This document shows positions 32,267 through 62,999 of a stretch of DNA of 64,000 bases, piece after piece. The stretch comes from Octopus vulgaris (lineage: Eukaryota). How positions within the stretch are numbered: position 1 is the first letter of the stretch; the number at the start of each line of letters is the position of its first letter. Under the pieces are notes generated by a model. That model was not told the DNA's origin, did not search any database, and saw only the letters and a program-made list of their open reading frames with translations. The DNA lies in the NCBI GenBank assembly GCA_951406725.2, contig OX597835.1, forward strand, positions 11,842,001-11,906,000, given 5' to 3'. Position numbers and translations under genes: made by a program.

Positions 32267-32855
32267 ACATATGTGCATGTTTGTGTGTGTGTATGTAATA
32301 AGGATTATTACGAAGTAGCACCGAATTATCTTTAATTCCTATGTATATATATATATATATATATATATATATATATATATATATATATATATATATATAT
32401 ATGGACCTACACAAGCCTCTACACATTATTTATACATAATCAGTCGCAAAATATTTGCCATGTCTATAAGACATTTTTTATTTATCTCATCCTATGCTAT
32501 CTAAAGTTGAAGAATTTACACATAAATACTGAAACATATGTCAACACACATACACGAAGAAGATGTAGATTGAAACAGATATCTGCATTTTTATATACAT
32601 AGACAACCCATATTTATTTTCATCGTAATCCTAGATTCCTCTCGTATGATTCGACATCGATGGGAAAAAGAATTAACGAAGTTATTTCTCCGGTTATCCA
32701 TATTTTGTGTAAAATCACTAACGATTATTGTCTAGTAATAAACAAAAATTGTATATAAAAGACAATAAACATTGTGACGTTTTGTGTCTATTCCCTTTAT
32801 TCCAGACGTTTACGCGGTTAACCTTGGGATTCGAAACCGGTACTCCATCTTTGAG

Positions 32856-33272
32856 ACGGTGGCGAGCTAGTAGAGACGTTAGCACACCGGGCGAAATGCT
32901 TAACGGTATTTCGTCTGCCCTTACGTTGTGAGTTCAAATTCCGCCGAGGTCGACTTTGCCTTTCATCCTTTCGGGGTCGATGAATTAAGTACCAGTTACG
33001 CACTGGAGTCGATGTAATCGACTTAATACCTATGTCTGTCCTTGTTTGTCCCTTCTTTGTTTAGCCCCTTGTGGGTAATAAAGAAATAGGTATTTCGTCT
33101 GCGTTACGTTGTGAGTTCAAAAATCCGCCGAGGTCGACTTTGCCTTTCATCCTTTCGGGGTCGATGAATTAAGTACCAGTTACGCACTGGGGTCGATGTA
33201 ATCGACTTAATACCTATGTCTGTCCTTGTTTGTCCCCTCTGTGTTTGGCCCCTTGTGGGTAATAAAGAAATA
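32856..33272 (+). mobile_element. SINE-A head-to-tail dimer
   Basis: Full first unit, junction aagaaata|ggtatttcgtctg at 33088/33089, and a 16-bp TSD ggtactccatctttga at 32839-32854 and 33273-33288. Confidence 0.9.
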
Positions 33273-34504
33273 GGTACTCCATCTTTGAACTCTACATTGA
33301 ATTCCCATCCGGTTTAAGTTGATTATCTTTTTGATACACGAGTACATACATAGTTAAAAATGAACATTAATAAATTATTACAGTTCACCATATTAATGAG
33401 CTCAAAAATGCAGTCGGTTGTATTACATATTTTGCTTTAATTTTAAGAGATAAATTTTTTTTTTATCAGTTAAGTCATTATCGCAAGTAAATCAGCTAAT
33501 ATCATTCAATTCCCATTCATTCAAATATGATGTGCTAAACTGTTCATATATGCAACAAAACTGTTCAGAAATAAATTATTAATGCAGTTTTCAGTTTAAC
33601 CGCAAGCAATTTTACCTTATCATATTGCATTTAAATCACACGATCTCATGCACACACAAATGCGTACGAAAATGATCAAATACACACACACACACACATA
33701 TATACACGTGTATATATATATATATATATATATATATATATACATATATATATATATATATACATATATATATATATATATATATATATATATATATACA
33801 TATATATATATATATATATATATATACATATATATATATATATACATATATATATACACATATATATATACATATATATATATATATATACATATATATA
33901 TACACATATATATATACATATATATATATAACATACACACACACACACACACACATATATATATATATATATATATATATATATATATATATATATTCTT
34001 ACATGCATACATATATACAGGTACGTGTGTGAGAACAGGAATATCCAAGATAAAAGTAAACGAAAGAAAGCAAATGAAATACGACAAAAAAGAAAAAAAG
34101 AGAAACATCTAGAAGAAACCTTAGGATATATGAGTAAAAAGAAACAAATCAATTGTTTACGGCGATTATGTATGGCTACGAGAATAGCTTTACATTGGAA
34201 ATCTCGCATCACATGGCAGTGAAAATTTTAGAATAAATTTAAATGAATTTGAATAGAATTTTTTTTTTTTCAGAGAAGTTACATGCTAACCATATAGAAT
34301 AAATTTGTGCATGTGTCCAATACATATCTTTGTATGTGTGTACGTGTACGGTAGTAATATGCATAGGTATTTGTGTTAAAATGTATGTGATGCTGGTGGT
34401 GGTGAGTGGTGGAGTATTCTGTTTCGCTATAAATGTGTGTGGATATGGGCGAATATCGGACAGAAAACAATTCTTATGAAAATGAAGGTAGTTTTCTTGG
34501 TAAT

Positions 34505-34702
34505 GTTTGCCAAAATCGTGTAAATCAGTAATTCTTGAATATTTTTGCTCAAAACCCTCCACCTCGCGTTTCTGTCGCCAAAAAATCATCACCGCCCAAA
34601 TTTCCATATACTTTCGAATTTTTCACAATTTACCGCCCACCAAATTCTCTGTAACGCCCCCGCAGAGGGATGTTACGGCCCATTTTGACATACACGGGCC
34701 TA
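34505..34702. mobile_element. Probable hAT-like DNA transposon terminus
   Basis: Repeated ccgccc/cgcccc subterminal motifs ending in ...tttgacatacacgggccta. Confidence 0.4.
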
Positions 34703-59167: not shown

Positions 59168-59357
59168 CACATTTCAGTAATTGACCAGTTAACGATATTG
59201 AAACTGTAAGTCATGACTGGTATGGCTAAAGTATTGATCGCTTCGATCCTGTTTCTTGCATTCAGCTATGTCTTGAGTATTGCCCTTACCCTGCGATAAC
59301 ATTCTCTTCTGACTTTTTCCCTTATCACCGTTTGATTCAGACCCCTTCAATTACCTC
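59168..59357 (-). mobile_element. R4-type LINE fragment
   Basis: IREKVRRECYRRVRAILKT*LNARNRIEAINTLAIPVMTYSFNIVNWS; homologous to 39145-39260. Confidence 0.8.
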
Positions 59358-60919
59358 GGCACAGTGTTACGCTAGTACTTAATTTATCGACCCCGAAAGG
59401 ATGAAAATCAAAGTCAACTTTGGCGGAATTTGAACTCAGAACGTGCTGACGGGCGAAATACTGCTAAGAATTTCGTCCAGCACGCTAAAGATTCCGCCAG
59501 CTCGTCGCCTTAATAATAATAATAATAATAATAATAATAATAATAATAATAATAATAACAACAACAACAACAACAACAACAATAACAACAACAACAACAA
59601 CAACAATAATAACAACAACAACAACAGCAACAACAATAATAATAATAATATGTAATTGACACTCCTCCCCTCCCCCCAAAATGTCTGCCGTTGTTGCAAA
59701 ATGTTAAGCCGTTATTATTATTATTATTATTATTATTATTATTATTATTATTATTATTATTAGCGCGGCGAAATGGCAGAATTAGCACGCCAAACAAAAT
59801 GCTTCGCACCCATTTCTAAAAGAAAGAAACAGAGATGAATAGACAGAGAATGAGAGAGAGAGAGAGAGAGAGAGAGAGAGAGAGAGAGAGAGAGAGAGAG
59901 AGAGACAGTTGAATCTGTCTCCAGTACGTAATTGATCGTTTTCGATTTTTGTTGACTCCGAAAGGATTAAAACTTGACTTAAGTGTGATTTGAACTCAAA
60001 TGCAAAAGTAGGATTAGTCGACCGCCTTTAGTATTGTCCTCAGACATACCTTATTATATTGAAATAAATCTCTACATATTTTGGCAGCTGTCGTTAAAAT
60101 TTGTTCTCTCTTTGACAATTTCTTTTCTCTCATTTACAGCACTGAAAAGGATTGAAATGGTAAATAATAGCTTTTCTGTTTGGTTTCCTTTCGATTTTTC
60201 AAACATCCATGATTCAACTGACATTTTGAATCCTCAAGTTAGAAATATAATACACGCCGCATAGGAAGCTGTGAATGAGAAATAAACTATGTGTTTGGAA
60301 CTAGTGAAGAATAAGTAAGCAGATGATAAATCGATGAAGTGGGTAGAAGTTTCCAAGCGACCGGAAAGTTGAAGGTTATAAAGAATGGATTTAACGGGAA
60401 TTTAATTGGTTTACATAGTAATTACTTTTCTGGACTGGCACATTTCTTCATTGCGATTTAAAAACGCAATTATGTTGGTTTGGTAGGAATGCGAATATAA
60501 AATCACACTTGAAAATATAGAATAATATTGGATTGTATAATAGAATATATTCTAAGAATAATGGAATATAAAAATGAGATCACAAATTTAAGTGAATAAA
60601 TAACTTCATTACAAAAGCCATGCACGTCCATAAATTTTCTTGTGGTATCGTTTAAATGCGATTCGGCGTTTCTTCAATGATTATTCTTTAATTCACATTA
60701 TTAAACAAATAAACGATAGTTATTACAACTATACATATTCTGTCAGGCTTATATTATGCAAATATTATGTTGTTTCCATTTGAATTTGAAAGACAAATCA
60801 AACACATACGAAAAATTTTTATAATGCTTCGTCCGATTCCAAACTATGAAAGAAGAAACGCTTACACACACACACACTGTTTGAATATAAAAGAGGGAAG
60901 TGAATAATATATGAATATG

Positions 60920-62260
60920 TATTTCTTTACTACCAACAAGGGGCTACACACAGAAGGGACAAGCAAGGACAGACAAACGGAGTAAGTCGATTACCTCGAC
61001 CCCAGTGCGTAACTGGTACTTATTTAATCGACCCCGAAAGGATGAAAGGCAAAGTCGACCTCTGCCGAATTTGAACTCAGAACGTCGCGGCAGACGAAAT
61101 ACCTATTTCTTTACTACCCTCAAGGGGGTAAACACAGAGGGGACAAACAAAGACAGACAAAGGGATTAAGTCGATTACATTGACCCCCAGTGCGTAACTG
61201 GTACTTATTTAATCGACCCCGAAAGGATGGAAGGCAAAGTCGACCTCGGTAGAATTTGAACTCAGAACGTAGCGGCAGATGAAATACCTATTTCTTTACT
61301 ACCCACAAGGGGCTACACACAGAAGGGACAAGCAAGGACAGACAAAGTGATTAAGTCGATTACATTGACCCCCAGTGCGTAACTGGTACTTATTTAATCG
61401 ACCCCGAAAGGATGGAAGGCAAAGTCGACCTCGGTAGAATTTGAACTCAGAACGTAGCGGCAGATGAAATACCTATTTCTTTACTACCCACAAGGGGCTA
61501 CACACAGAAGGGACAAGCAAGGACAGACAAAGTGATTAAGTCGATTACATTGACACCCAGTGCGTAACCGGTACTTAATTAATCGACTCCGGAAAGGATG
61601 AAAGGCAAAGTCGACCTCGGCGGAATTCGAACTCAGAACGTAGCGGCAGATGAAATACCTATTTCTTTACTACCCACAAGGGGCTAAACACAGAGGGAAG
61701 AAACAAGGACAGACAAACGGATTCAGTCGATTACATCGACCACAGTGTGTGACTGGTACTTATTTAATCGACCCCGAAAGGATGAAAGGCAAAGTAGACC
61801 TCGGCGGAATTTGAACTGAGAACGTAGCGCCAGATGAAATACCTATTTCTTTACTACCCACAAGGGTCTAAACACAGAGGGAAGAAACAAGGACAGACAA
61901 AGTGATTAAGTCGATTACATCGACCACAGTGTGTGACTGGTACTTATTTAATCGACCCCGAAAGGATGAACGGCAAAGTCGTCCTCGGCGGAATTTGAAC
62001 TGAGAACGTAGCGGCAGACGAAATACCTATTTCTTTACTACCCACAAGGGGCTAAACACAGAGAGGACAAACAAGGACAGAAAAACGGATTAAGTCCATT
62101 ATATCGACCCCCAGTGCTTAACTGGTACTTATTTAATCGACCCCGAAAGTATGAAAGGCAAAGTCGACCTCGGCGGGATTTGAACTCAGAACGTAGCGGC
62201 AGATGAAATACCGCTTAGCATTTCGCCCGGCGTGCTAACGCTTCTGTCAGCTCGACTCCT
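60920..62260 (-). mobile_element. SINE-A heptamer (184-186-bp units; only the 5'-most unit has the full head)
   Basis: Units start (plus coordinates) at 60920, 61104, 61289, 61474, 61660, 61844 and 62028. 18-bp TSD tgaataatatatgaatat at 60901-60918 and 62263-62280. Confidence 0.95.
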
Positions 62261-62999
62261 TATGAATAATATATGAATATATATATATATATATATATAT
62301 ATATATATATATATATATATATATATATATATATATATATATATATATATATATATATATATATATATATATATATATATATATATATATATATATATAT
62401 ATATATATATATATATATATATATATATATATATATATATATATATATATATATATATATAATGGACAGCTAATTTAAAATATATCATGCCGTATATTGA
62501 ATCATTCTTAATATAGACCACGAAAGGTTATTAATCGCCTCCTCCTCCTCACCAGTGATGCTCAGGGTTAAACTGCGTTAGTTCATCAAACGATTGATTG
62601 AATCGCATTGATTCCACTCTTGTGACATGGCGTTAGTCTTATTTCAGACGCAGACGCATAAACATGGATATATTCAAACGTTTTATTTAAATATCTAAAC
62701 GCTTCTAAGCATCAATATTAACTGCCTAAAGGTGGGCTACAAAGGCCATGGGTATTGCATTTTCTGCAAGAATGAACAAATAACCACACACACATACGCA
62801 CACACACAAACACACACACACACACACACACACAAACACACACACAACTATTACTGCTACTACTACTATTGCTATTACTACGACTACACATACACACACA
62901 TACGCACACGCATATATAGTGGGTGCGATAGATAAATTGTTGCCATTTTATATTTCTAATTTCGCGCATGCGTAATGTTTGCTTCTGATTTTGTCGACT

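Follow-up and report, generated by a model that had tools for sequence, protein, structure and literature searches.

A fixed joint in short interspersed element multimers of Octopus vulgaris and its resemblance to the sites at which the element inserts

A 64,000-nt stretch of Octopus vulgaris DNA (contig OX597835.1, positions 11,842,001 to 11,906,000; the window) contains a short interspersed element (SINE) with a tRNA-like head that occurs both singly and in tandem arrays. The window was searched with one head-plus-unit query, and all window counts given below rest on this stretch. Besides partial relatives, six full-length elements were found, three monomers and three arrays, the latter thus making up 3/6 of the full-length copies. 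They are listed here with the target-site duplications (TSDs) of the arrays, in window positions:

16325..16562, minus strand: monomer with a 16-bp TSD and two extra bases at its 3' joint
32839-32854 (5' copy) and 33273-33288 (3' copy), plus strand: 16-bp TSD of the dimer
32856..33272, plus strand: dimer, a 49-nt head and two body units that are 3.3% apart, with the joint between 33088 and 33089
42891..43124, minus strand: monomer with a 17-bp TSD
44993..45005, plus strand: target-like 13-nt 5' flank of the pentamer, directly before its head
45006..45970, plus strand: pentamer, a head, four units of one sub-lineage (1-4% apart) and one unit of the other
58530..58763, minus strand: monomer with a 13-bp TSD, inside a decayed reverse-transcriptase-like frame
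60920..62262, minus strand: heptamer, a 50-nt head and seven units in blocks of unit 1, units 2 and 3, units 4 to 6, and unit 7
62263-62280 (5' copy) and 60901-60918 (3' copy), minus strand: 18-bp TSD of the heptamer

The three arrays lie where an initial annotation of the window had placed them, the pentamer starting at 45006 and the heptamer ending at 62262. Body units are 183-188 nt long, and the passage from the tail of one unit into the body of the next is always the same: all 11 internal joints (one in the dimer, four in the pentamer, and six in the heptamer) read GAAATA followed by GGTATTTC, as the annotation had claimed. The window has 12 exact copies of the 14-mer GAAATAGGTATTTC, at the 11 internal joints and once inside an inverted copy at 44462-44771 that is described below. 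We call GGTATTTC, at element position 51, the restart 8-mer. A head is present on the first unit alone in 3/3 arrays; it had been put at ~40 nt and is in fact 49-50 nt. The dimer and the heptamer each lie within a single TSD, of 16 and 18 bp as annotated, with one extra base between the heptamer's 3' end and its TSD copy, and these enclosed arrays are consistent with retrotransposition of multimers. TSDs of 13-18 bp accompany 5/6 full-length copies; the exception is the pentamer, around which no intact TSD was found, and 44993-45005 is, on its sequence, probably the 5' TSD copy whose partner has been lost. All six copies retain the head and share a common 3' end position without a simple-repeat tail, the last hexamer carrying a single substitution in one of the six.

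The sites into which the element has inserted resemble this joint. In the five TSD-bearing copies, the three monomers included, the eight bases after the tail match GGTATTTC at 25/40 positions, compared with 10.8 at random sites (P ~4e-6), and removing simple repeats leaves the figure unchanged. The restart 8-mer is the best scoring of the monomer's 226 8-mers (25; the next scores 21). Taken singly, the dimer TSD start matches the restart at 6/8 and 9/12 bases, and the pentamer 5' flank, 13 bases upstream of the head, at 7/8 (P 0.0045 over offsets 12-20). A majority sequence drawn from all six sites agrees with the restart 8-mer in seven columns and is tied between G and A in column 2; the chance of finding such an exact 8-mer in the element is 0.7%. 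T occupies column 3 in 6/6 sites and A column 4 in 5/6. Given T or TA at columns 3-4, the remaining five columns match at 13/25 (P 0.0006-0.002), and columns 1-2 by themselves at 5/10 (P 0.014-0.018), or 7/12 when the pentamer flank is added (P 0.002). A likeness to the tail is also seen in the six bases that precede the target (16/30, P 0.009), which could be ordinary 3' microhomology. The matches suggest that insertion sites, those of monomers too, mirror the tail-to-body joint, and this is what is new here.

Units within an array are closer to one another (mean distance 7.4%, 32 pairs) than units at different loci (10.7%, 104 pairs). The two dimer units share private variants. Pentamer units 1-4 have diagnostic bases in common with the heptamer, and unit 5, which is 9-11% from them, has those of the monomers; by these bases the pentamer mixes two sub-lineages. 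The four blocks of the heptamer are mostly 8-11% apart, as much as separate loci. Within it, units 4 and 5 differ at columns 33-109 alone and units 5 and 6 at columns 131-174 alone, so that a stretch of 211 columns, from column 110 to the end of unit 4 and through columns 1-130 of unit 5, is identical to the next period. Compared in register, units 4-6 show 9 and 7 mismatches, and an identity of 211 columns was reached in 0/5000 permutations. Units 4-6 are a recent DNA-level duplication with mid-unit breakpoints, as by unequal crossover or slippage, rather than a restart at the joint. One of the outcomes that the initial annotation had set against its own model, descent of all arrays from one ancestral dimer expanded by unequal crossover, is thus seen in part, at these three units. 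Neighbouring units have 17 shared variants and 28 singletons. In a tree of the units 4/15 branches are well supported, and the heptamer is unresolved; differences between unit 1 and unit 2 cluster toward the 5' end at borderline significance (Kolmogorov-Smirnov P 0.054). Two further features adjoin the pentamer:

44462..44771, minus strand: 310-bp inverted copy, 99.4% identical to 45761-46069, with one joint and one unit
45971..46100, plus strand: remnant of a sister SINE having the same head from position ~18-20, an internal deletion and a different tail, joined to the pentamer tail

The passage from the pentamer tail into the sister-SINE head at position ~18-20 is a second type of joint, one of the five tail-to-SINE joints of the pentamer. 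The inverted copy, 235 bp before the pentamer, spans the last part of unit 4, then unit 5 and the remnant of the sister SINE; no TSD was seen around it, and it looks like either a recent templated insertion or an assembly error. Elsewhere, at 7296-7512 (minus strand), headless pieces of the sister SINE form a separate 117-bp tandem joined via (TAT)n runs.

The joint was also followed in four of 24 listed public sequencing runs (X15, X6, X12, and X22), placed on the 58530-58763 monomer as reference. Run X15 carries the same organism label and is RNA by guess alone; at least 47,474 of its 6,579,193 contigs were placed. Run X22 consists of raw reads, 9 of 12,895,792 of which were placed, and no joint frequency is derivable from it. 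Counts from the contig runs are lower bounds, being drawn from 15 of 226 joint records and 18 of 1190 loose-end records, and depths were not used as copy numbers. In X15, at least 99 contigs run on from the tail into the restart sequence (agreement 0.72), and at least 77 pass from position 51 into the tail (agreement 0.80). A 184-base back-joint was found in at least two contigs of X15, at least four of X6 (which has another organism label), and one of the nine reads of X22; it was absent among the matches listed for X12, which is not evidence of absence. The GAAATA-restart joint is therefore family-wide, probably dominant, and accompanied by other joints. A contig containing it cannot distinguish a circle from a genomic dimer. 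Pattern scans of metagenome, viral, and genome contigs gave 0 matches. Head variants at 58713 and 58718, at or near the restart, together account for ~12-19% of summed depth in X15 and X6 and ~0.5% in X12, possibly marking a lineage-restricted subfamily, and the tail is much scarcer relative to the middle domain in X12.

As is usual for a tRNA-derived SINE, the element is a short, dispersed, non-coding repeat with variable-length TSDs. Using loose patterns of our own, an A-box-like motif was located at position 13-14 in 6/6 heads and a B-box-like motif at 77-78 in 4/6 first units, as well as in 5/5 pentamer and 7/7 heptamer units; on motif match alone, these make up a putative internal RNA polymerase III (Pol III) promoter. 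ARAGORN found 0 tRNA genes, and Rfam, searched with the dimer, returned no tRNA match up to E 10; decayed tRNA-derived heads often fail tRNA detection. The central domain is a putative CORE domain, like that of the octopus element OR2. OR2 is listed as an octopus CORE SINE (PMC4758252; here and below, published work is cited for the parts of each source that were covered). A relative of the tail also stands by itself:

35083..35132, plus strand: tail-only relative, 74-83% identical to the SINE's last ~40-50 nt, at the end of a T-rich stretch

The T-rich stretch (34758-35305) carries this SINE-like tail with (TATC)n on both sides and has no coding region attached in the window; 35083-35132 is a candidate for the 3' end, or 3' untranslated region, of a partner long interspersed element (LINE). 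The decayed reverse-transcriptase-like frame that is split by the 58530 monomer spans 58043-59000 and gives weak LINE-1 ORF2 structure matches (E 0.13-0.38); Pfam showed no match in three LINE-like frames of the window. Two dispersed repeat pairs with protein-like frames, 8027-8797 with 38232-38983 (84%) and 2530-3158 with 14259-14913 (92%, bounded by (AAT)n), likewise have no Pfam match, and both are reminiscent of R4/Dong-type LINEs. Another young dispersed repeat of ~390 bp occurs at 12803-13194, 20579-20932, 22361-22738, and 39761-40152 (89-96% identity). Internal SINE units read with a shift of one base, from position 52 (e.g., 33090-33273 and 45240-45422), start with GT and end with AG after a pyrimidine-rich stretch; the likeness to an intron was noticed after the fact and is unsupported.

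The account that we favour, and to which we give an even chance of being correct, is that head-(body)n transcripts are the templates, that target DNA primes on the joint, and that unequal crossover regrows the arrays. Productive source loci would be head-(body)n multimers, in which Pol III would start at the single head and read through the units; read-through is suggested by the T runs of the majority unit, of which seven are T3 and none is T4. A partner LINE protein would bind the LINE-like tail of one unit, and the nicked target strand would anneal over ~8 nt to the RNA just past GAAAUA, i.e., to the start of the next unit, from where reverse transcription would run back to the head. A monomer would result when joint 1 is primed and a k-mer when joint k is, in both cases within one TSD starting like GGTATTTC, so that the next unit would take the role of the simple-repeat tail that the SINE lacks. 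Because the start of a TSD mirrors the RNA at the priming site in target-primed reverse transcription (TPRT), the RNA past GAAAUA would have read GGUAUUUC, for monomers too, and the templates would thus have been multimers (or circles). The best fit is to linear head-(body)n transcripts, because there is a head on every array, the majority unit lacks T4, and joint-k priming gives a k-mer in one TSD. The joint itself may have arisen once or rarely and be common by descent. Copying alone would shorten arrays, and regrowth would take place in DNA by unequal crossover or slippage between units, possibly also by insertion into existing copies, which would be perfect targets. Short pairing of this kind has parallels: in L1 priming as few as four matches suffice and mismatches are compensated within 10 nt (PMC3649969), and in RTE-related SINEs the TSD starts follow the 3' repeat of the RNA (PMC6007223). 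A wider version, which we put forward more tentatively and think somewhat improbable as a whole, holds that the multimer is the replicating form, that priming has passed from a simple-repeat tail to the joint and the element's own sequence guides insertion, and that shortening and spreading by TPRT alternate in a loop with regrowth by self-insertion and crossover, making this a minisatellite that moves by TPRT.

Several observations weigh against the favoured account. T4-T5 runs are present in pentamer units 1-4 and in heptamer unit 1, so read-through from these copies today is unlikely, and the multimeric transcript and the partner LINE protein are both postulated. The pentamer 5' flank was located by eye after the pattern was known, so the evidence from targets amounts to five TSD sites and one such flank, and the pentamer 3' flank, left out of the five-site count for want of a TSD, matches at 1/8. 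Most of the signal lies in columns 3-8 (20/30), which pairing of the tail with the top strand or a TAT-type endonuclease preference would predict equally; the discriminating columns 1-2 reach just P ~0.015, with 2/5 sites mismatched at both, and columns 9-12 are near chance (5/20). The tail-sharing relative, too, sits in a TAT-containing repeat. An identical 18-bp TSD at 8.3% divergence has P = 0.21, and the heptamer blocks may have diverged either before or after insertion. Lastly, the public runs contain other joints, namely, back by 237 bases in at least 13 contigs of X6 and at least 2 of X15, by 180 in at least 1 contig of X15, and by 177 in at least 1 of X6.

Some of these points are what would be expected if the target, rather than the template, set the joint. 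An endonuclease might prefer NNTATT-like sites, or the GAAAUA tail might pair with TATTTC on the top strand of the target; position 51 would then be a hot spot for self-insertion, at which new copies join by 5' homology and the same joint recurs. This would explain the self-complementary joint directly, together with the near-constant T and A at columns 3 and 4 (6/6 and 5/6 sites), the arrays of divergent units with two sub-lineages in the pentamer, the tail-sharing relative within (TATC)n, and the sister SINE that ends in (TAT)n. It does not predict G at columns 1-2 (5/10, P ~0.015; 7/12 with the pentamer flank, P 0.002), the extension that it does predict at columns 9-11 is near chance (5/15), neither a second head nor an internal TSD is retained in any array, and the dimer units, 3.3% apart with shared private variants, are unlike two random copies. 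We also know of no precedent for a tail pairing with the non-primer strand. Overall, we judge this explanation unlikely, though worth keeping in view, and it can coexist with the favoured one. Decidedly less probable is a history in DNA only, in which one accidental ancestral dimer gave rise to all arrays by descent and expansion, monomers came from monomer sources, and the likeness of targets reflects an AT-rich preference and small numbers. Active copying at the DNA level is evident from the out-of-register duplication in the heptamer, the 17 shared versus 28 singleton variants, and the 99.4% identical inverted copy, and unequal recombination has been published for similar arrays (PMC11481361; PMC10702118); however, the target match (P ~4e-6) survives conditioning on TA and includes three monomers, and 3' ends that are fixed yet lack a simple-repeat tail call for a priming site.

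The initial annotation had itself offered a mechanism, in which the RNA 3' end folds onto TATTTC and reverse transcriptase either jumps back repeatedly or copies a ~184-nt circle, each array being made afresh at each insertion. Its starting observation is correct, in that the TATTTC at element position 53, beside the restart, has GAAATA as its reverse complement. The chance of such a match within 5 offsets of a fixed restart, here at 2 nt, is ~0.2% (a perfect TATTTC anywhere in the element, 9%), so the self-complementarity stands as non-random; it is the recurrent jump-back that is not supported. The relevant structure lies in the head:

58702..58729, minus strand: 12-bp head hairpin, element positions 35-62, with a 4-nt loop at 47-50

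TATTTC is part of the 3' strand of this hairpin, paired with the head's own GAAATG, and the restart site, position 51, follows the loop immediately on its 3' side. In predicted folds the head stem has a mean pairing probability of 0.97-1.0 in 5/6 copies (the one whose stem is mutated has 0.02), and the tail fold-back has 0.000 in 6/6 head-bearing RNAs; the predicted duplex energies are -14.6 for the stem versus -2.0 kcal/mol for the fold-back. The fold-back thus fails because TATTTC is locked in the head hairpin, and in the dimer fold the hairpin at the joint has a probability of 0.0. Such a model would require prior removal of the head, e.g., by a cut in the loop at 47-50, after which a head-less unit is predicted to pair end to end with a probability of ~0.07; fold-back of an RNA that had lost its head may have created the first joint on a single occasion. 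The near-identical dimer units inside one TSD and the position of the restart just past the loop would also suit it, and R2 reportedly undergoes end-to-end template jumping. A circle, however, predicts random headless 5' ends and near-identical units, whereas heads are complete in 3/3 arrays, the unit blocks differ from one another as much as separate loci do, and there is an out-of-register duplication. No Rfam ribozyme reached gathering score in the window (one unrelated match, E=5.5, fell on the dimer), and the hammerhead core word CUGANGA is not conserved, being found in 2/14 array units on one strand. A fold like that of hepatitis delta virus was considered by eye, as the restart could pair near position 132-138, and no P3 or P1.1 fits. 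The resemblance of monomer targets to the restart would be left unexplained. Neither repeated jump-back nor copying from a circle is borne out, and we regard this mechanism as very unlikely.

With the circle unlikely, the joint-like insertion sites, five to six in number, are the more interesting lead, and they suggest that a chain RNA is the form that is copied and that the joint helps choose the landing site. Landing sites offer a direct test between two origins of SINE multimers, copying of the multimer as a unit and later assembly by insertion and recombination. If monomer targets genome-wide mirror the joint, then monomers are copied from multimeric RNA, and the system would show how a SINE loses its simple-repeat tail, how sequence within an element comes to direct where it lands, and how satellites start from dispersed retroposons; a target logo of TAT alone would make this an ordinary SINE-derived tandem repeat.

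The architecture of the arrays is already published; the resemblance of targets to the joint is new. Our literature search, in which coverage of subscription papers was thin and the original octopus SINE paper lay outside, returned no paper on targets that mirror a multimer joint, and the main text of a 2026 O. vulgaris repeat annotation, as far as covered, contains neither "satellite" nor "multimer" (PMC13282606). The nearest counterpart is in the blood clam Scapharca broughtonii, where TSD-(SINE)n-TSD multimers have 4-15 units (PMC11481361). As in the dimer and heptamer here, one TSD surrounds several units, the first unit alone has a complete tRNA-related head, and later units have a common head truncation; the clam's first and middle units, however, are 3'-truncated, with a full tail on the last alone, whereas every unit here has a full tail. 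That paper proposes unequal recombination between TSDs for arrays generally and, in the parts covered, reports no resemblance between target and joint. Squamate SINE-derived satellites (sSat), such as sSat3Gja1 and sSat3Ati2 (179 nt; head end, body, and LINE-derived region), likewise repeat in tandem a unit that falls short of the whole SINE, with a single longer unit at the end, limits that are fixed across loci, and sub-variants that alternate within a locus (PMC10702118). They differ in being treated as DNA-level, subtelomeric satellites, with long, homogeneous arrays of up to ~1000 units, whereas the window arrays are short, heterogeneous, TSD-enclosed, and set among monomers; four or more middle units with fixed limits define an sSat, and the heptamer has five, the pentamer three, and the dimer none. 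In the rodent SINE Dip, 49% of copies are in head-to-tail multimers of up to eight units, and for dimers of B2 the origin, whether a second copy inserted into a tail or a dimeric template was copied, was left open (PMC8466645); a large share of copies is multimeric there too, but those units are described as full-length, and here they are headless and joined at one base. Non-LTR (long terminal repeat) retrozymes have a type I hammerhead, abundant circles, and tandem units of 170-400 nt (PMC7229834). The size of their unit is similar, and the circle model of the initial annotation works alike, but they have a conserved hammerhead in each unit, where none was found here (no Rfam ribozyme; CUGANGA in 2/14), and the head of the window element is of Pol III type. 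A Penelope-like element is described as initiating internally at RNA sites that are not homologous to the target (PMC11167929), which differs from the target-joint resemblance here. In L1 and RTE-related SINEs, as apparently in this element, the TSD start mirrors the RNA at the priming site (PMC3649969, PMC6007223); the difference is that in those systems a poly(A) or microsatellite tail forms the RNA side, whereas in this one, as we propose, the first bases of the next unit do.

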